Origin: Candidatus Falkowbacteria bacterium CG1_02_37_21
GTDB taxonomy: Bacteria; Patescibacteriota; Patescibacteriia; Patescibacteriales; UBA12465
DNA length: 52,102 bases
Assembly (NCBI GenBank): GCA_001871165.1
Contig: MNUT01000002.1
Span: 1 to 52,102, forward strand
Reading direction: 5' to 3'
A model generated the notes under the pieces. The model was not told where the DNA came from. It ran no database searches and was given only the letters and a program-made list of their open reading frames with translations. The position numbers and the translations under genes are program-made. The number at the start of each line of letters is the position of its first letter. The stretch's first letter is position 1. Positions 19,702 to 45,844 of this stretch are shown in pieces.

Positions 19702-20871
19702 ATGAGTATCTATAAACGAAAAAATAAATGGTGGGTAGACTTTAGCTTTCAAAATAAACGCTATCGTTTCTGTAGTCCGGAAAATTCCGCTAGTGGTGCT
19801 AGAGCTTATGAGGGATTATTAAGACAAGGCCTATTAAAAGGAGAAAATATTTCTACCAAAATAGAGCCCTGTCCAGTTTTTTCAGCTTTCGCCGAAAAAT
19901 GGTTTATCAATTATGTTAAATCAAATAATAAGTTCTCTGAGTACTGCAATAAACAAAGCGTTTATAAAGTCCACCTTGAACCATTTTTTGGTAAATTAAG
20001 TCTTGATCAAATTACAGCTTATAAGATAGAAGAATTTAAGGCATTAAAGACCCAGTCTACTCTTGCCCCTAAAACTATCAATAAGATGCTCTCAACCCTC
20101 AGGAAAGCCTTAAATACGGCAGAGGAGTGGGGTTTACTAGTTTCTGTGCCCAAAATTAAGCTTCTAAAAGTACCACCTCAAAAATTTGATTATCTTTTAC
20201 CAGAAGAAGAAGACTTTCTACTAGAAAACACCGAAGGCATATGGCACAATATGATTCTATTAGCTCTTAAGACCGGATTAAGATTTGGCGAGATAATTGC
20301 TTTAAACTGGGAAGACATTGATTTCTCAAATAAACTCCTAACCGTTCGCCATTCCATTGTTCGAGGAATAATGGGAAGTCCAAAAAGTAACAAGATTAGA
20401 TATATTCCAATGACTGATTCTTTATTGGAAATGCTTTGGAATAAATCAAAAAATGAAGATTATATTTTTACTCTAGGAAACAATAAACCAATGAAGCAAA
20501 TTTATTGTTTAAAAAATATGACTCGCATTTGTAAGAAATTAAATATACGCAAAATAGGTTGGCACGTTTTACGCCATACTTTTGCTTCACGCCTAGCAAA
20601 CAACGGAGTTTCTATGAAAGTTATTCAAGAACTTTTAGGCCACTCCGATATTACCACGACAATGCGCTATGCTCATTTGTCGCCGATCACTCTTCGAGAA
20701 TCTATACGCACTTTAGATAATCGAAAAGCCATTGAATTAGAGATATGTCACAAAAATGTCACAAATGTCACAATCACTAATTTAAAAGAGACGGATTTAG
20801 CTCCGGTTAAATCTCAAATTTTCCCCGAAGATAAACAAAAACAGACATCTCTGTCTGTTAATGTTTTGTGA
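19702..20871 (+). CDS. Tyrosine recombinase/integrase
   Basis: Catalytic R (TGLRFGE), K (PKS), HVLRH, LGH, Y (TMRY); stop codon overlaps att. Confidence 0.96.
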   Translation: MSIYKRKNKWWVDFSFQNKRYRFCSPENSASGARAYEGLLRQGLLKGENISTKIEPCPVFSAFAEKWFINYVKSNNKFSEYCNKQSVYKVHLEPFFGKLSLDQITAYKIEEFKALKTQSTLAPKTINKMLSTLRKALNTAEEWGLLVSVPKIKLLKVPPQKFDYLLPEEEDFLLENTEGIWHNMILLALKTGLRFGEIIALNWEDIDFSNKLLTVRHSIVRGIMGSPKSNKIRYIPMTDSLLEMLWNKSKNEDYIFTLGNNKPMKQIYCLKNMTRICKKLNIRKIGWHVLRHTFASRLANNGVSMKVIQELLGHSDITTTMRYAHLSPITLRESIRTLDNRKAIELEICHKNVTNVTITNLKETDLAPVKSQIFPEDKQKQTSLSVNVL

Positions 20872-20890
20872 GCGGGTAACGGGAATCGAA
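20870..20890. repeat. att site within tRNA-Gly
   Basis: Identical to 13758-13778. Confidence 0.92.
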
Positions 20891-20942
20891 CCCGTCTCTT
20901 GAACTTGGCAAGCTCACATAATAACCACTATACGATACCCGC
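20871..20942 (-). tRNA. tRNA-Gly(GCC)
   Basis: Acceptor GCGGGTA/TACCCGC, anticodon loop TTGCCAA, T-loop TTCGATT. Confidence 0.95.
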
Positions 20943-20966
20943 AATTCTTCTGCTTTAAATCTAGCC

Positions 20967-21051
20967 TGGTGGTCCAGGTGGGAATCGAACCCACATGCCT
21001 GTTGGCACAACATTTTAAGTGTTGCGTGTATACCAGTTCCACCACTGGACC
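20967..21051 (-). tRNA. tRNA-Leu(TAA), CCA encoded
   Basis: Acceptor GGTCCAG/CTGGACC, loop CTTAAAA, long variable arm. Confidence 0.95.
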
Positions 21052-21071
21052 GTTTATCTTAGTATACTTTG

Positions 21072-21449
21072 TGGAGATGATGGGAATTGAACCCATGTCC
21101 AACCGGTTTCTGTAAATAAGTGTACAAAAGTAGTCCGTTTTGTTGTTTGACTAGTACCATAGGAAAACGAACGAAAAGCGATACTAGCGATCTTCCTATT
21201 GTTTCGAGATTAACCGGAAAGCGCGATTAAAGTCTAGTCTCATGATTATGACACCGAACGCCGCTTATGAAACCTGGGCGTCGTCGATGGTTGTGGCTAT
21301 ATTAAGCGACAACAGGAGCGTAGCTCGGAGTTAACCAAGTGAACGCTGTAGCCGATTTGGCATTTATGTTTTTTAGCCAGTTTTACGTGTTAGCTAAGCG
21401 CGTTTTGCTTATTTAGAGAAAGGTCCGGCTGTCGACGCCTGACATCCCC
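21072..21449 (-). ncRNA. ssrA: tmRNA
   Basis: 5' GGGGATG...TCGAC, 3' GGGTTCAATTCCCATCATCTCCA with G3-U70; tag frame 21361-21302; adjacent to smpB. Confidence 0.95.
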
Positions 21450-32689: not shown

Positions 32690-34471
32690 TTATGACAAAT
32701 ACTCTTTAACCGGAGCCTTTTTGCTAGACGCGGTTAATGACCCCTTCCCCTGTAAGCAGCTATCACATTTACCACAAGGAGCGGCTGAGTGATCGCCAAA
32801 ATAACGTAAAATGTATTGCTGTCGACAGCCGGTATGGTAAACGTAATTCTCCATCTCATCCAATTTTTCATAAGCGCGCGCCGCCTTATTTTTAAGTTCT
32901 TCAAAATTTAAATTTAGATCCTCTGCTTTAACCTGTTTCAAAATTTTAATTTCCGTACCGCGGAAAGGCGGATGATAATCTACTAAATCTTGTTCTGCTA
33001 ATTTTTTTACGGCCCGCAGCAAGGCCTCTTTTTTAAAATGTAATACTACTGCCACTTCTTCCGGACTAAAATCCCAACCGGCAATTAATTCTGAAGCATA
33101 TTTTATGCCCAAAGCTGTCGCGATTTCCCGCTGACTTTTAGCGCGAGGACTAATAGCTGCCAAAACTTCAGTCCAAGGCTTTTTAGCTTTTAAATAAGAG
33201 TTAGAAGTTTTTTCATTAGGCCGTGAAATATAACCCTCTCTTTCTAAAATTTTTAAAGCCGTTCCAATCGCCATTTCCGGGACAGAGTCCGATAAACTTT
33301 GTCCAATCTCAGCATAAGTTATAATAACAGAGGCCTTAGGGTCTACTTCCGCTTCTACCCGATTCTGTAAAAAATCATAAATTTCAATAATTATTTTGGG
33401 ATCAGGATTATCTCCTTTAATAAAAAATTCTCGTAAATAACGATCCTGTTGATGATAAAATAATAAACAAAAACTATCCTGTCCGTCACGGCCAGCTCGT
33501 CCCGCTTCCTGATAGTAAGCTTCTATTGTGCCCGGTAAATCATGATGAATAACAAAACGAATATCCCTTTTATTAATTCCCAGGCCAAAAGCATTAGTCG
33601 CCACTACTACTTGAGCGGCGCCACTCATGAATTGTCCCTGAACCCAGTCACGGCTGGAAGCATCTAGGCCGGCGTGGTAAGCTACCGCCTTCACTCCGTT
33701 GTCCATCAAAGCTTCTAGAATTTCATCAGCTTTAGACCTAGTTCCTACATAAATAATACCATTTCCCAAATCCTTATTCTCAGTCAATAAATTCACAATC
33801 GTCGAAACCTTCTGACCATTACCGGTTGGGGTCACTGCAAAATGTAAATTAGGACGAGAAAAACCAGTTATCACTAATTCCGAATCTTGCAAACCTAATT
33901 GTTTTACAATATCATCACGCACTTCCGGTGTCGCCGTGGCCGTCAAAGCCACGACCGTAGGCGAACCGCTAAACTTTATAGCACTTTTTAAGCGAACATA
34001 GCTAGGGCGAAAATCATGTCCCCACTGACTGATACAATGCGCTTCATCAATCGCGAATAAAGAAACTTTAATTTTTTTTAACTCAGTCAAAAAAATGTGA
34101 TTATAAAAACGTTCCGGAGCGATATAAACTATTTTATAAGCGCCGTTTCGTAGAGCCTCTAAACGCCGATCAGTCTCCTGTAAAGAAATAGAAGAATTAA
34201 TAAAAGTTGCCGGAATACCAACCCTCTCTAAAGAATCAACTTGATCTTTCATTAAAGCAATTAAAGGAGAAATAACAATAGTAATGCCCTCTAAAATTAA
34301 GGCTGGCAACTGAAAAATTAAAGACTTACCACCTCCGGTCGGTAAGACTACCACCGTGTCACGACCGCTCAAAATACTATCAATAGCCGCCTCTTGTCCG
34401 GGCAAAAAAGATTCATAAGCAAAATGAATCTTTAGCAGTTCTTTTAATTGTTGTTTTTGTTTGGCTATCAT
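32690..34471 (-). CDS. recQ: RecQ-family DNA helicase
   Basis: [42 protein letters not shown]...CGKCDSC. Confidence 0.94.
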
Positions 34472-34516: not shown

Positions 34517-35308
34517 TTACTGACGTCGTTTAAAAATTTCCCAAGTGTTCTGGAATAAAAAGGCGATAGTCATTGGGCCAATACCACCCGGCACCGGCGT
34601 GAGAAAAGAGGCAATATCTTTAGCTTCCTTAGTATCAACATCACCTAAAATTTTATCGCCGACTTTAGTAATACCAATATCAATAATTACCACATCCTTT
34701 TTTAACATTTCTTTTTTTATCTTACCCGGTTCGCCTAAAGCACTCACTATTAAATCTGCTTGCTCCGGATTCTTTTGCAAACTGACAATCATTTCTTCTT
34801 GTTCCAGAAATTTTTTAACACTCTGGCCAAAAACCTCGGAATTATACAGGACGCAAACACTTTTACCGGCCGGCATAAAATTAATATCATCCAAACACGC
34901 TTTAATGGCTGCCAAAACCGGTGATACAATATAATCGGGATGATGAGGATGAAAACCATCCACATCTTTATCCGGTTGAATAGCTTGAATTATTTTATCG
35001 GTATTGAATTGTTTCGGCAGAGGCAGTTGAACTAAAATGCCATCGATCAATTCATCTTTATTTAAAAAATCAATGACAGACAACAATTCTGCCTCTGGAG
35101 TGTCAGCTGCCATTTTATATAAATGAGTATCAATACCCACCTTCTTGCCTTCCTGTTCTTTTTTACTGACATAAAGCTGAGAATCCGAACGATCGCCAAC
35201 TAAAATAATAGCCAAGTTGGGTCTTGGTCCTTTTGACTTTTCAATTTCCGCCGCAATTTTTTTCTTAATTTTTTCGGCAATAGCTTGTCCGTCTATTTTT
35301 TGCATCAT
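34517..35308 (-). CDS. folD: Methylene-THF dehydrogenase/cyclohydrolase
   Basis: GILVQLPLP, KDVDGF, IDIGI, TPVPGGIGPMT. Confidence 0.94.
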   Translation of the reverse strand: MMQKIDGQAIAEKIKKKIAAEIEKSKGPRPNLAIILVGDRSDSQLYVSKKEQEGKKVGIDTHLYKMAADTPEAELLSVIDFLNKDELIDGILVQLPLPKQFNTDKIIQAIQPDKDVDGFHPHHPDYIVSPVLAAIKACLDDINFMPAGKSVCVLYNSEVFGQSVKKFLEQEEMIVSLQKNPEQADLIVSALGEPGKIKKEMLKKDVVIIDIGITKVGDKILGDVDTKEAKDIASFLTPVPGGIGPMTIAFLFQNTWEIFKRRQ

Positions 35309-35309
35309 A

Positions 35310-36551
35310 TTATTTAGTAGGTATCGGGAAACGTTCACAAAGTTCCTTAACTTTTATTTTTAATTCCAATAATTTTTCTTCATCGCCGGCATTCATTAGA
35401 GCTATGTCCATATAATCGGCGATTAATTTCATTTCCGTCTCTTTCATGCCGCGAGTAGTAACAGCCGGGGTTCCTAAACGCAAACCAGAAGGATTCATCG
35501 GCGGATTAGGGTCATTAGGAATAGTAGAGCGTGAAGTAGAAATACCAATTTTTTCTAAAATCTTTTCCGCTTCTTTACCGACTAAATTTTTAGAAGCTAA
35601 ATTTACAACCATCATATGATTATCAGTTCCCCCGGAAACAATCTGATAACCGCGTGTCATAAATTCCTGAGCTAAGGTACGAGCGTTGCTAATAATTTGT
35701 CTGGCATAATCTTTAAATTCCGGACGAAGAGCTTCGCCAAAGGCCACGGCCTTAGCGGCGGTAATATGATCATGCGGACCACCTTGCATACCGGGAAAAA
35801 CAGCGCGATCAACCTGCTTAGCAAACTTTTCCTTACACATTATTATTGCGCCACGCGGTCCCCGTAAAGTTTTATGAGTGGTGGTAGAAACTACATCAAA
35901 AATTGGTACAGGATTTTTTATTTCTCCGGCAGCAATCAAGCCAGCAATATGTGCAATGTCAGCAAAAGTATAAGCCCCTATCTCGTCAGCAATGGCTTGA
36001 AATTTTTCCCAATCAATCTCACGAGAATAGGCACTAAAGCCGGCGACGATCATTTTTGGTTTCTCGGCTAAAGCAATACGACGCACTTCTTCCATATCTA
36101 TCAAACCACTTTTTTCATTCACGCCATACTGCACAAAATTATAAAGACGACCGGAGAAATTAACGCTATGCCCGTGTGAAAGATGACCGCCATGGTCAAG
36201 TTTTAAACCCAAAACTTTATCGCCTGGTTCCAAAAAAGCCATATAAACAGCGGCGTTGGCCGGTGATCCGGATAAAGGTTGCACATTTACATGTTCCGCC
36301 TGAAATAATTGTTTAGCTCGCTCTATTGCCAAAGTTTCTATATCATCAATATTACAATTACCGCCATAATAACGCTTACCGGCGTAACCTTCGCTATATT
36401 TATTGGTTAAAACCGTGGCCATCGCCTCTAAAACAGCCGGCGAAACATAGTTCTCTGAAGCAATAAGTTCTATTTCCTCATTTTGCCGTTTTTCTTCCTT
36501 CTGAACTATTTCCCAAACAGCCGTATCATTTTGTAAATTATTATATTTCAT
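35310..36551 (-). CDS. glyA: Serine hydroxymethyltransferase
   Basis: LIASEN, NKYSEGY, GGHLSHG, TTTHKTLRGPRG. Confidence 0.97.
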   Translation of the reverse strand: MKYNNLQNDTAVWEIVQKEEKRQNEEIELIASENYVSPAVLEAMATVLTNKYSEGYAGKRYYGGNCNIDDIETLAIERAKQLFQAEHVNVQPLSGSPANAAVYMAFLEPGDKVLGLKLDHGGHLSHGHSVNFSGRLYNFVQYGVNEKSGLIDMEEVRRIALAEKPKMIVAGFSAYSREIDWEKFQAIADEIGAYTFADIAHIAGLIAAGEIKNPVPIFDVVSTTTHKTLRGPRGAIIMCKEKFAKQVDRAVFPGMQGGPHDHITAAKAVAFGEALRPEFKDYARQIISNARTLAQEFMTRGYQIVSGGTDNHMMVVNLASKNLVGKEAEKILEKIGISTSRSTIPNDPNPPMNPSGLRLGTPAVTTRGMKETEMKLIADYMDIALMNAGDEEKLLELKIKVKELCERFPIPTK

Positions 36552-36607
36552 ATCGTTAATCTTAAGTGAGTGATAATCTTTTGTCAAAAATAATTTTAAA
36601 TAAAATT

Positions 36608-37306
36608 TTATTTAAATTTTCTAAATAAAGGTCCGTACATATCATCTCTTATATCAATTCTTAACTCGTTTTTATTAACCTTATTACAATAACTAACTGG
36701 CGCGCCGCTAATAACGGCGACTGGCTGTCGTTCTGCTCCTTCACCCATTAATAATACCGCTGCTGTGGCTAAACTATCAGCCATATCCACGCTGGAAAAA
36801 TGAAAAGGTCTTCCAAAAATATCTTCTTCCTGACGATAATCTTTTAGACCATGAAAACCGGCATAACCAAGAGCCACGCCGGTAATCCCAGAGCGTAAAG
36901 GTATTACTCGACTATCAGTGATAATCACTCCTAAATTTTTAAGAGAAAATTTGCGACGAAAATGATTACGAATCTTAGCCGCCGATAAAAAGCTGTCTTT
37001 TGGCAAAAGGATTAAATCGCCATTAGCATTACTCTCATCAACCCCAGCGTTAGCCATCACTATTCCCTCTTTAATAGTTAAGTAAACATATTTTGTTTCC
37101 ATTTGAAATTCACTCTCGCTATTAATGATTTCTCTTTTCTGTTTATCACTAACATTCTTCACTACCCTGTTTTCCGCTAAAGCTACAATTTTAGAAGTCA
37201 CCACTAAAATATCACCTTCGGCCAGGCACAAAAAATATTTTTCCAAAAAAAATAATAAATTTTCTCCCGGTTTAAATATCCTGGTTTTGCTGGCTTTTAT
37301 TTTCAT
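36608..37306 (-). CDS. CofE/F420-0:gamma-glutamyl ligase-like protein (possible alternative folylpolyglutamate synthase)
   Basis: VTSKIVA, NAGVDESN, VIITDS, PLRSG..GVALG, MGEGAERQP. Confidence 0.85.
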   Translation of the reverse strand: MKIKASKTRIFKPGENLLFFLEKYFLCLAEGDILVVTSKIVALAENRVVKNVSDKQKREIINSESEFQMETKYVYLTIKEGIVMANAGVDESNANGDLILLPKDSFLSAAKIRNHFRRKFSLKNLGVIITDSRVIPLRSGITGVALGYAGFHGLKDYRQEEDIFGRPFHFSSVDMADSLATAAVLLMGEGAERQPVAVISGAPVSYCNKVNKNELRIDIRDDMYGPLFRKFK

Positions 37307-37940
37307 AAGATAAAAGATGAATCCCTAAATAAGATAAAGGGGTATAGACAAAGCCCATCCCCACTTTATATAACCACCAAGGCAAACCCATTAAAATTAT
37401 AGTTTTTAAGGGATACACTCCAATAAAAGCGACCAACATAAATATTCCCGTATCTAAAAATTGCGACCACAGGTTAGATAAGTTTGATTGTAGCCAAAAA
37501 GCTTTATCATTTAATTTCTTCTTAAACCAAAAGAAAGCCAATACGTCCTGATATTCACCAATAACATAAGCTAAAAGAGAGGCTAAGGACATCCGCAGAG
37601 AAACGCTAAAGATTGTATTGTATGAATCTTTAAAAGCTAAACCACCCTGAGACCAGGGGGCGCTCAAAGAAATAAGAGAATATAACATAAATACCGCGAC
37701 ACTGATAAATCCAGCCATCACAAAATTCTTAGCCATACGACGGCCATAAACTTGACCAATAACATCCGTAGTTAAGAAGACAAAAGGGAAAAAAATAATT
37801 GATACCGATAAATGTGTACCAAAAATAAAAGGCATGATTTTTAAGCCTAAGGTGTTAGCCGCAAATAAGGACGCTAAGTAGAGCGTAAGGGCGATAATAA
37901 TCCTGAAATTTATTTTTTCTGTTGATATTGAACTTGGCAT
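37272..37940 (-). CDS. VUT/YhhQ-family (queuosine-precursor-type) transporter
   Basis: FPFVFLTTDV..VYG, RMSLASLLAY, SQFLDT..F..VAF. Confidence 0.88.
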   Translation of the reverse strand: MPSSISTEKINFRIIIALTLYLASLFAANTLGLKIMPFIFGTHLSVSIIFFPFVFLTTDVIGQVYGRRMAKNFVMAGFISVAVFMLYSLISLSAPWSQGGLAFKDSYNTIFSVSLRMSLASLLAYVIGEYQDVLAFFWFKKKLNDKAFWLQSNLSNLWSQFLDTGIFMLVAFIGVYPLKTIILMGLPWWLYKVGMGFVYTPLSYLGIHLLSYENKSQQNQDI

Positions 37941-37975
37941 TGAAATGAAAACTAAATAATTAAAATTAAACAAAC

Positions 37976-38124
37976 AAAAAACGCCCAAGAGGCGTTCCTA
38001 AACAACAAAAAATCGCCTCCAGCTTATGACATACTGTTGGTGGTCGGATTACAACCGGACCAAGTTTTAATATTTTTATTGATTAGCATGGTAATATTAT
38101 ACACTAAATCCCAGCAAAATACAA
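37976..38124 (-). promoter_or_regulatory. Putative attenuator: promoter, leaderless 21-aa ORF (38089-38024), antiterminator and terminator
   Basis: TTGTAT-17-TATAAT-6-ATG; GGAGGCG can pair with CGCCTC of terminator AACGCC-TCTTG-GGCGTT plus T tract. Confidence 0.6.
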
Positions 38125-38211
38125 ATTTTTATTGATTGCTCCGTCAAGCAATTTAAGTTATAATCACTATATAAGTTTAATAAATAATAAATAAATTAAT
38201 TTAAAGAACAT

Positions 38212-39351
38212 ATGAAAAATAAAGGCCTAAAATTCCTCATATTAGCCGTTCTGATTTTGCTGCCCATATCCGCTCTTCGGGCCGCCGGTAATCATGCCGG
38301 GGCTAATATCTATGTGCCTGAGAGTGAGATTATCAGCGGTAATTTTTATGCCACCGGACAAGACATCACAGTTGACGGCAACATCGGCGGAGACTTAATA
38401 GTCGCCGGACAAAATATTAAAGTTAACGGAGATGTAGAGGGGGACATAATCGCTGTCGGACAAAGTATAACTATTGACGGTTTCATAGGCGGCAATGTTC
38501 GTGTCGTCGGAAACTCTTTAACTATTAATGGTTCTGTGGCGCGCAATGTTAATGCTTTTGGCACCAATGTTATATTAGGGCCAAACTCTAATATAGGCTG
38601 GGACGTTTATAGCGTCGGTTCTCTCGTAGAAGCTAGAGGAATAATTAACGGTAATTTAAACGGTTACGCCGCCCAGGCCTTAATAACCGGTACAGTTGAA
38701 AAAGATATTAATCTTAATCTGGGTGAAAGTGATGATGTTTCTTCTTTAACGATTAGCTCTACGGCCGTTATCAATGGAAATCTAAACTACACATCTAATA
38801 ATACAGCCAATATTGCCACCGACGCCAAAATAAACGGTACTACCGAACAAAAATTTCCGAAAATACAAGAGAATAGTTGGCTAATGGCTTGGGCCTGGAA
38901 AACTCTATTTACGATGTTCTCTGCCTTCTTCATCGGTTTAGTATTAGTCTTTGGCTTAAAAAATATTACTGACGGTATCTTAAACGGAATGGAAAAAACT
39001 CCCGCCAAAAAAATTCTACCGGGATTGATCATTATGCTAATTACCCCACCGCTCGCTATTATTTTAATGTTGACTCTAATCGGTATTCCTCTGGCCGTAA
39101 TACTCTTGGCGCTATGGATGATACTTTTATATGTAGCCAGAATTATTACCGCCCTCTGGATTGGAAAATTAATTGTCTCTAAAATAGATAAAAAAAGTTC
39201 ATCTCTCATGTGGCCTCTAGTCATCGGCGTCTTAGTTCTTTTCTTATTAACATCTATTCCTATCTTGGGCGCATTCATTTGTTTAATCGCTGTCTGGCTC
39301 GGGCTAGGCGCTATCTACTCTTATGCTTACAATCAATACAAAAATATTTAA
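38212..39351 (+). CDS. Bactofilin-like beta-helix repeat protein with C-terminal TM domain
   Basis: Repeats G.I.GD...AGQ.I.V.G; signal peptide; several TM helices. Confidence 0.8.
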   Translation: MKNKGLKFLILAVLILLPISALRAAGNHAGANIYVPESEIISGNFYATGQDITVDGNIGGDLIVAGQNIKVNGDVEGDIIAVGQSITIDGFIGGNVRVVGNSLTINGSVARNVNAFGTNVILGPNSNIGWDVYSVGSLVEARGIINGNLNGYAAQALITGTVEKDINLNLGESDDVSSLTISSTAVINGNLNYTSNNTANIATDAKINGTTEQKFPKIQENSWLMAWAWKTLFTMFSAFFIGLVLVFGLKNITDGILNGMEKTPAKKILPGLIIMLITPPLAIILMLTLIGIPLAVILLALWMILLYVARIITALWIGKLIVSKIDKKSSSLMWPLVIGVLVLFLLTSIPILGAFICLIAVWLGLGAIYSYAYNQYKNI

Positions 39352-45458: not shown

Positions 45459-45697
45459 GGGTGCCTATCGGGAATTAGCGCGCTCAACCGCCGCCAGAAT
45501 TGCGGCGGTCTCGCTTGTCCAGGGTTGGCGTCCGATATGCCACCCGGCATATCGTCCGACGCTCTCCTTTTCGCTATTTCTTCCGAAATAGCTCAAGACT
45601 CGCTGCCAACCTGTCCGATTCCCCGCGACTACGTCGCTATAATAAAAATAATCCAGAAAATTCTGGATTATTTTTATTATGGGTGCCTATCGGGAAT
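45459..45697 (-). repeat. tRNA-His-linked ~222-bp structured mini-element (copy B)
   Basis: 17-bp direct repeat GGGTGCCTATCGGGAAT at 45459 and 45681; core homologous to 13540-13774. Confidence 0.85.
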
Positions 45698-45753
45698 CGG
45701 ACCCGAAATAACAGGACCACAACCTGCTGTGTTACCACTACACCATAGGCACC
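45682..45753 (-). tRNA. tRNA-His(GTG)
   Basis: G-1, acceptor GTGCCTA/TAGGCAC, C73, loop TTGTGGT; atypical T-loop TCCGATT. Confidence 0.92.
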
Positions 45754-45772
45754 ATTTGTTTCTTTTGAAACG

Positions 45773-45844
45773 TACGCCCGGAAGGAATCGAACCTTCGTC
45801 TAGAGCTTAGAAGGCTCTCGTTCTATCCGTTGAACTACGGGCGC
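45773..45844 (-). tRNA. tRNA-Arg(TCT)
   Basis: Acceptor GCGCCCG/CGGGCGT, loop CTTCTAA, T-loop TTCGATT. Confidence 0.94.

Follow-up and report, generated by a model that had tools for sequence, protein, structure and literature searches.

The folate genes of Candidatus Falkowbacteria bacterium CG1_02_37_21 are very likely preceded by a translated leader that acts together with a transcription attenuator, so that it is probably the ribosome, and not a riboswitch, that controls these genes. On balance, we favor the interpretation that the element is a ribosome-mediated, trp-like transcription attenuator of a folate regulon in which the conserved nascent leader peptide serves as the sensor. The observations behind this interpretation are a conserved open reading frame (ORF), from which we infer translation, its link to folate genes, and alternative hairpins with their computed geometry; the stalling of the ribosome and the trigger of the stall are what we infer beyond them. 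The element was found in a window of 52,102 nucleotides (contig MNUT01000002.1, positions 1 to 52,102), in which it consists of the following parts:

38119..38124, minus strand: −35-like hexamer TTGTAT, weak (three of six consensus positions), with a 17-nt spacer to the −10 hexamer
38096..38101, minus strand: perfect −10 hexamer TATAAT, followed by 6 nt (ATTACC) and then the ATG
38024..38089, minus strand: leader ORF of 21 codons plus TAA, peptide MLINKNIKTWSGCNPTTNSMS, with the ATG at 38089-38087 and the TAA at 38026-38024
38051..38065, minus strand: codons 9-13, T-W-S-G-C, the proposed stall site (family block T-W-S-[G/S]-F, with Cys for Phe)
38061-38055 and 38047-38042, minus strand: arms GGTCCGG and CCGACC of an internal hairpin, inside the ORF
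38008..38020, minus strand: antiterminator 5' arm, composed of GGAGGCG (38020-38014) and the ensuing A/U-run, pairing with the 5' arm of the terminator
37977..37999, minus strand: intrinsic terminator hairpin of 10 pairs with a loop of 3, and a T-run at 37981-37976

The promoter, the ATG 6 nt past the −10 hexamer and the peptide had all been proposed in an earlier, sequence-only reading of this DNA and were confirmed on the minus strand. The same reading had placed GGAGGCG 4 nt past the stop codon, complementary to the CGCCTC of the terminator, and this too agrees with the sequence: the onset of GGAGGCG is the fourth nucleotide past the stop, and its complement is found at 37994-37989 within the 5' arm of the terminator. 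In the minimum free energy structure of the nascent RNA (−14.1 kcal/mol), the terminator 5' arm is engaged by the antiterminator over its entire length of 10 nt. Since TATAAT ends 6 nt before the ATG, the transcript is predicted to be leaderless or nearly so, and no motif resembling a Shine-Dalgarno (SD) sequence was seen 5' of the leader ATG. The promoter was not called in a promoter scan of the window because of its poorly matching −35 hexamer. Just 5' of it, a perfect inverted repeat, ATTGCT-TGACGG-AGCAAT (38135-38152, minus strand), sits in the divergent intergenic region shared with a bactofilin-like gene (38212-39351, plus strand) and could represent a putative protein-binding site.

Downstream of the attenuator, four genes follow on the same strand:

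37272..37940, minus strand: Vut_1 family transporter, 222 aa from the ATG at 37940 (Pfam PF02592, E 9.4e-36)
36608..37306, minus strand: CofE/F420_ligase-family protein (Pfam PF01996, E 2.6e-39)
35310..36587, minus strand: serine hydroxymethyltransferase, SHMT or GlyA (Pfam PF00464, E 2.8e-161)
34517..35338, minus strand: FolD, methylene-THF dehydrogenase/cyclohydrolase (Pfam PF00763 and PF02882)

A RecQ-type helicase gene (32690-34471, minus strand) lies 3' of FolD on the same strand, and the window also contains the 5' part of a 23S rRNA gene, a tmRNA gene and four tRNA genes (1-999, 20871-21449, 45682-45844). The first regulated gene, Vut_1, is a candidate folate importer. The second gene probably encodes a folylpolyglutamate synthase of the FolC2 type, because a chlamydial CofE homolog is reported to complement folC in E. 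coli (PMC1971073). The genome (0.70 Mb in 32 contigs, 94.7% complete) encodes ThyX, Tgt, Def and one Formyl_trans_N protein, which we read as Fmt because it adjoins Def, whereas FolP, DHFR and ThyA were not found at this level of completeness. It would seem, then, that the organism relies on reduced folate taken up from outside, both to make thymidylate and to formylate its initiator tRNA.

The Vut_1 subfamily linked to the leader is 24-32% identical to second Vut_1 paralogs (L014-L022), which lack the leader, and it is co-regulated with FolB, FolC, SHMT and DHFR at other loci (between L024 and L128). Judging from this genomic context, the subfamily may be the folate importer of the Patescibacteria. 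A survey from 2025 lists folA, glyA and folD in most genomes of the candidate phyla radiation (CPR) and reports that no folate transporter was found in them (PMC11974145). As to membership in YhhQ/COG1738, the window protein has the Pfam Vut_1 domain; its gene is clustered with folate genes, and no link to queuosine genes or to a preQ1 riboswitch was found in the window. It may transport a queuosine precursor, as the genome contains Tgt but only this one Vut_1 match.

The sequence-only reading had pointed to orthologous leaders as the place to look for the ORF, and in these it recurs. A search of 41 related genomes with the Vut_1 protein yielded 13 close ortholog loci, nine of which, counting the window, have an ORF of 19-23 codons 5' of Vut_1. 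All nine ORFs start with M-L and carry the T-W-S-[G/S]-F block (with Cys13 in the window) at codons 9-13, and since the same ORF and motif recur in relatives, the leader is beyond chance. Its codons vary among the nine, with TCC, TCG, TCT and TCA at Ser11 and GGT, GGC, GGG and GGA at Gly12. The remaining four close ortholog loci (L005, L008, L009, L010) are without a leader ORF, and none was found at the nine loci with distant Vut_1 paralogs.

The leader was also sought by pattern searches that do not depend on the transporter gene. A degenerate pattern was present in 42 of the 316 genomes of the order, as against a single match for the reversed pattern. The loci provided 36 distinct ORFs, 34 of which have 18-23 codons, while two (L033, L035) look like chance occurrences. 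With a stricter pattern and one genome per species, at least 120 stretches were recovered, and 78 of the 80 that were read are ORFs of 14-29 codons; matches at L055 and L070 were set aside as chance, and the one at L120 is probably chance too. Among the matches listed, almost all taxa are Patescibacteria, including Falkow-, Magasanik-, Uhr-, Kerfeld-, Colwell-, Taylor-, Wildermuth- and Moranii-bacteria, Paceibacterota and Saccharibacteria. An evenly spread sample of the phylum (401 genomes) was also searched with a free gap of 13-25 nt between the start and the motif; nine genomes matched, and the reversed control gave five matches. Six of the nine are plausible and all six have a gap of 19 nt, so that Thr9 stands at a constant distance from Met1.

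Some matches come from public records of metagenome-assembled genomes (MAGs). Several records titled “uncultured Gammaproteobacteria” (L061, L069, L126, L130 and others) contain the same leaders as genomes placed in the CPR genus of the window, the leader at L126 being identical to that of genome G017 and the one at L130 to that of G221, and the titles of such records look wrong. Likewise, records assigned to “Nevskiaceae” (L108) and “Bdellovibrionales” (L066) contain typical leaders of the CPR type.

In total, the family comprises 98 distinct leaders across the Patescibacteria, 14-29 codons in length and of the form M-L-x6-T-W-S-[G/S]-F, where the invariance of the motif is partly circular because most leaders were gathered with a pattern that fixes it. 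Attention was therefore directed to positions that the pattern does not dictate. Codon 2 is always Leu and is written with all six Leu codons, yet none of the 45 TTN codons is TTY; codon 12 is GGN in 60 leaders and AGY in 38 but never AGR; and the wobble positions are near random. This codon usage argues that selection is on the amino acids and not on nucleotides or codons. Position 14 is V, I or T in 69 of the 98 leaders, which extends the consensus to M-L-x-[N/T]-x-x-x-[T/K]-T-W-S-[G/S]-F-[V/I/T], while the tail of the leader is not conserved. Conservation of the peptide, rather than of nucleotides or codons, is what is expected of an arrest sensor, and it points to a peptide-specific stall of the ribosome, which we regard as a rather probable trigger of the switch.

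A family model (R1), built from the sequences of these 98 leaders alone, was applied to 148 genomes of the family and gave 31 strong matches, in which the only new real variants were F13C, in the window, and T9I, in genome G280. One weak match was located inside a long ORF, and there were three further weak ones. The window leader itself scores 38 bits against this model (E 1.2e-9) and is present in a single copy in its genome. Its Cys13 occurs in one of the 98 leaders, the window's own, and the region 37900-38200 is identical in contigs from four DNA runs, one of which is possibly the source of the window; the Cys13 codon is therefore not an error of one assembly.

Is the conserved element perhaps an RNA? 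An undescribed riboswitch, or another RNA motif in which the open frame is incidental, would fit the position ahead of vitamin genes and the terminator/antiterminator platform. Such a motif would have to accommodate conservation with a period of three, free wobble positions, all six Leu codons, an ATG and an in-frame stop that are always present, and a conserved block that forms no conserved helix, and we consider it exceedingly improbable. The Rfam searches point in the same direction. The sequence-only reading had seen no match to the consensus of the preQ1 or THF riboswitches, in line with our scan of the window, where no riboswitch, be it preQ1, THF (THF-I or THF-II) or ZTP, reached its gathering score. 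When 37850-38300 was searched with E values up to 10, the best E value was about 0.8, and matches to the azaaromatic (E 2.2) and icd-II (E 0.81) families were rejected as they are far below their gathering scores. Only tRNAs were identified by Rfam at 20 other leader loci. Leaders or orthologous Vut_1 genes are located directly 3' of tRNA genes at several loci (L011, L105, L065, L132, L026, L114 and L009).

Alternatively, the peptide could act in trans as a small protein, perhaps by partnering with the transporter, and the hairpins would then be an ordinary leader terminator. Conservation at the amino acid level agrees with such a function as well, but the leader is found ahead of cytoplasmic enzymes too and not just of transporters, the peptide shows no conservation in its tail and it matches no protein family; seven peptides of the family had no match in NCBIfam or Pfam at E values up to 10. 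Furthermore, the length (14-29 aa) and the antiterminator geometry described below follow the distances set by the ribosome footprint. A trans-acting protein is thus highly improbable in our view, and we return to the leader as a sensor that acts on the ribosome.

The genes controlled by the leader speak to what may be sensed. The first gene past the leader was scanned for 88 proteins (25 of 34 plus 63 of 75 references, with protein-anchored loci or duplicates left out). The most frequent family is Vut_1 (43/88), followed by FolB (7/88, mostly long proteins that resemble FolB-FolK fusions), CofE-like proteins (6/88), NlpC/P60 (5/88; L030, L032, L065, L079, L089), FolC-type Mur ligases and SHMT (4/88 each) and the FGase family (3/88; L023, L066, L101). 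DHFR, a ThyA-like protein, an ECF S-component, a GNAT protein and RuvA were identified once each (1/88), RuvA being a likely chance match, and 11 of the 88 proteins belong to no family. The NlpC/P60 and N-formylglutamate-amidohydrolase-family (FGase) proteins might, speculatively, be gamma-glutamyl hydrolases, which would shorten the polyglutamate chain of folates ahead of uptake.

The leader marks a folate regulon and not a queuosine regulon, which excludes the queuosine theme raised by the sequence-only reading, namely that the signal is the queuosine-dependent decoding of Asn codons. The codons tell against it as well, since 13 of the 98 leaders contain no Asn and 11 of 98 contain no Asn, Asp, His or Tyr in the first 13 codons. 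What did hold from that reading is the broader proposal of a translated leader ORF with an antiterminator/terminator pair controlling the VUT/folate genes, which is supported by our data.

Starvation for a codon is another way in which a translated leader may work, here through slow decoding of Trp, Ser, Gly or Thr when a charged or folate-modified tRNA is short. The architecture is indeed trp-like, and SHMT interconverts serine and glycine, the residues found at positions 11-12 (Ser-Gly or Ser-Ser). No codon is repeated in a run, however, Ser replaces Gly12 in 38 of the 98 leaders, and codon choice is free at Ser11, Gly12 and Leu2. Moreover, L2 and F13 are invariant even though they are irrelevant to such sensing, and the regulated FolB, FolC, DHFR and ThyA make no amino acid, all of which renders an attenuator based on codon starvation very unlikely.

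We now turn to the RNA switch. A terminator-like hairpin was present within 110 nt past the stop codon in 73 of 99 leaders, at a median distance of 26 nt. The ribosome footprint extends from −12 to +15 around the first nucleotide of the P site, and in our masked folding the nucleotides covered in this manner were held unpaired. Over the 73 leaders, the median probability of the terminator was 0.67 for the free RNA, 0.02 with the P site at codon 13 and 0.94 with the stop codon in the A site. A switch, that is a probability below 0.5 in the stalled state and above 0.5 at the stop, was predicted for 52 of the 73 leaders; it was not seen at equilibrium in the other 21, which counts against the stall. 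After shuffling of the spacer, the stalled-state median rose to as much as 0.92, and a stalled-state probability below 0.5 was obtained for 2 of 73 shuffled leaders versus 54 of 73 observed ones, which come from related genomes and are not independent, so that statistical significance is overstated. In the window, the probabilities are 0.76 for the free RNA, 0.68 for the stalled state and 0.76 at the stop; with its Cys13 and its weak predicted switch, the window copy is atypical within the family.

An antiterminator arm was identified in 65 of the 73 leaders, with a median start 7 nt and a median end 14 nt from the first nucleotide of the stop codon. The start of the arm lies 32.1 ± 2.6 nt after codon 13, as compared to 5.6 ± 6.2 nt from the stop (range −20 to +16), and the position of the arm has a correlation of r = −0.04 with ORF length. 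It is thus fixed relative to codon 13 and not to the stop, which ties the switch to the motif. Counting against this, the position of the terminator tracks the stop (SD 4.8 nt) more closely than codon 13 (SD 7.2 nt) and is correlated with ORF length (r = 0.75).

Two further pairings were considered. In 22 of 65 leaders, as compared to 2 of 65 shuffles, the antiterminator arm was predicted to pair with region 1 (codons 14-19), and by this trp-type pairing of regions 1 and 2 an untranslated RNA would terminate. As free RNA, 40 of the 73 leaders are predicted to terminate and 33 to antiterminate. The internal hairpin GGTCCGG..CCGACC, to which the sequence-only reading had drawn attention, is present in the window, but a function for it was rejected: codons 10-12 pair with the ORF tail in 61% of 84 leaders versus 69% with shuffled tails, so that such hairpins are neither commoner nor more stable than those formed with shuffled tails.

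The 26 of 99 leaders that have no terminator are mostly from the Saccharimonadia and have ORFs of 14-17 codons and an SD; of the 10 that lent themselves to the analysis, only one was predicted to have its SD released by a stalled ribosome. On a Parcubacteria contig (L098:1501-1545), a 14-codon leader ends in ATGA such that its stop overlaps a possible Vut_1 start, which suggests translational coupling in place of a terminator.

Initiation of the leader is not uniform within the family. Of the 99 leaders, 13 have a −10-like hexamer ending 6 nt 5' of the ATG, and in 15 this distance is 9 nt. An SD is present instead in eight leaders, all of the Saccharimonadia type, and a simple test revealed neither a nearby −10 nor an SD in 44. 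Leaderless initiation is predicted from these distances to be common but not universal.

This bears on the hypothesis that the leader senses the rate of initiation. The ORF would be translated only when formyl-Met-tRNA is plentiful, whatever the sequence of the peptide; timely translation would then mask the antiterminator (OFF), and poor or late initiation would set it free (ON). The ATG 6 nt past TATAAT and the lack of an SD in the window are in favor of such a sensor, as are the 28 of 99 leaders with a −10-like hexamer at a distance of 6 or 9 nt from the ATG and the predicted antitermination of the free RNA in 33 of 73. The operon also ends in FolD, the maker of 10-formyl-THF, Fmt and Def are present, and deficiency in GlyA or FolD has been reported to lower formylation (PMC7949028). 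A Formyl_trans_N match was found in all leader-bearing genomes of the order; as 300 of its 316 genomes have this domain, the presence of Fmt is uninformative as a test.

Such a sensor would leave unexplained why L2, T9, W10, S11, G/S12 and F13 are conserved as amino acids and why the antiterminator is anchored to codon 13 and not to the stop. It also sits poorly with the eight leaders that have an SD and the 44 with neither a close −10 nor an SD, as well as with the leaders in which the free RNA terminates or region 1 pairs with region 2. We therefore consider an initiation-rate sensor quite unlikely, and initiation failure is a weakly supported trigger. On the same grounds, namely termination of the free RNA in 40 of 73 leaders, the pairing of regions 1 and 2 in 22 of 65 and the eight SDs, the claim of the sequence-only reading that failed initiation gives read-through is not supported as a general rule, whereas a ribosome at the stop would, as that reading has it, cover the 5' arm of the antiterminator in the window and in most relatives of 20-21 codons.

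Returning to a peptide-specific stall, we propose the following sequence of events. Transcription would begin at or just 5' of the AUG, and the leader ORF would be translated at once. A ribosome that reaches the stop codon would cover the G-rich arm of the antiterminator, whereby the terminator forms and the operon is OFF; an alternative OFF route would be the pairing of regions 1 and 2 after release of the ribosome, again leaving the terminator to form. If instead the ribosome stalls when T-W-S-[G/S]-F has just been made, with the P site near codons 13-14, the antiterminator arm, 32 nt further 3', would remain free. It could then pair with the 5' arm of the terminator, allowing read-through into Vut_1, the CofE-like ligase, SHMT and FolD (ON).

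The stall corresponds to ON, and the products of the regulon synthesize folate, bring it into the cell and load it. From this, the most probable trigger is either a signal that folate or one-carbon units are scarce or a folate-related metabolite that acts as an inducer while bound in the exit tunnel. Repression by an end product, in which folate itself binds directly, fits awkwardly with a logic where the stall is ON. Two routes are conceivable. In the first, a small molecule would bind together with the nascent chain in the tunnel, and a small molecule is a trigger that we entertain tentatively. The second would make use of the formylation state of the invariant Met-Leu N-terminus, which is held at a fixed distance of 8 residues from the block. 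A link to formyl-THF and fMet, as suggested by the sequence-only reading, is possible, although an unformylated N-terminus or the supply of fMet-tRNA is a somewhat unlikely trigger. Formulated more specifically, an unformylated Met, produced when 10-formyl-THF is short, would stall the leader peptide in the tunnel and turn the folate genes ON, and such a formylation-sensing arrest is in our estimate unlikely.

The proposed attenuator resembles several known systems without being identical to any of them. Like the trpL, hisL and pheL attenuators, it has a short translated ORF and alternative antiterminator and terminator hairpins between which the position of the ribosome decides, and region 1 is situated in the tail of the ORF, here in about a third of the leaders. 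Computed folding indeed yields an ORF and mutually exclusive hairpins selected by ribosome position, as in trpL, but there are no two or more clustered codons for an amino acid of the operon; instead, the block contains single T, W, S, G/S and F codons. Unlike these attenuators, the folate leader thus combines an invariant peptide block with free codon choice and no regulatory codon run, and it controls cofactor genes rather than an amino acid pathway.

The TnaC and SpeFL leaders sense tryptophan and ornithine, respectively, and in both cases the stall of the leader peptide prevents the termination of operon transcription. With these, the folate leader shares a short sequence that is conserved at the peptide level, an invariant Trp and a proposed stall that prevents termination. 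It differs from them in that it has no sequence similarity to them, in the fixed spacing from N-terminus to motif and in its intrinsic rather than Rho-dependent terminator, and its stall is predicted. The leaders of the Erm, Cat/Cml and MsrD/Mef genes stall the ribosome after about 8-14 codons, and transcription attenuation is the mode of action of some of them. They are likewise very short, and the whole peptide, including the N-terminus, is still in the tunnel at the stall; however, they sense drugs and control resistance genes, whereas the folate leader precedes housekeeping genes in minimal genomes.

The regulons of the THF-I, THF-II and ZTP riboswitches comprise folate transport, folate synthesis and one-carbon enzymes. 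The folate leader has the same kind of regulon and the same terminator/antiterminator output, but it has no aptamer or Rfam match, and its sensor would be a translated peptide. In mycobacteria, leaderless short ORFs with poly-Cys are described as attenuating operons in a translation-dependent manner (bioRxiv 10.1101/834739). As portrayed there, these are similar in that the operon opens with a short leaderless ORF that is the attenuator, but they rely on codon-based Cys runs where the folate leader has a conserved peptide motif. We found no description of the folate leader peptide in open-access full text, subscription journals being outside the scope of this search, and no entry for the leader in Rfam, Pfam or NCBIfam.

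To our knowledge, all cis-acting regulators of bacterial folate genes are RNA aptamers (THF-I, THF-II, ZTP), and the metabolite-sensing leader peptides that we know of sense amino acids or polyamines. If a vitamin regulon is attenuated through a peptide, the ribosome would thus serve as a sensor in a new way. The leader is spread over a huge radiation whose members are mostly uncultured, have minimal genomes and possess few regulators that are known, and the short invariant motif occurs also in the Saccharibacteria, some of which are cultured. The leader defines a folate regulon in the ultra-small Patescibacteria, and it points to the Vut_1 subfamily as the missing folate importer of the CPR and to the CofE-like, NlpC/P60 and FGase-family genes as functions in folate salvage. 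If a formylation-sensing arrest peptide were indeed at work, it would fill the job of the THF and ZTP riboswitches in the Patescibacteria, with the ribosome itself reading the one-carbon status of the cell.
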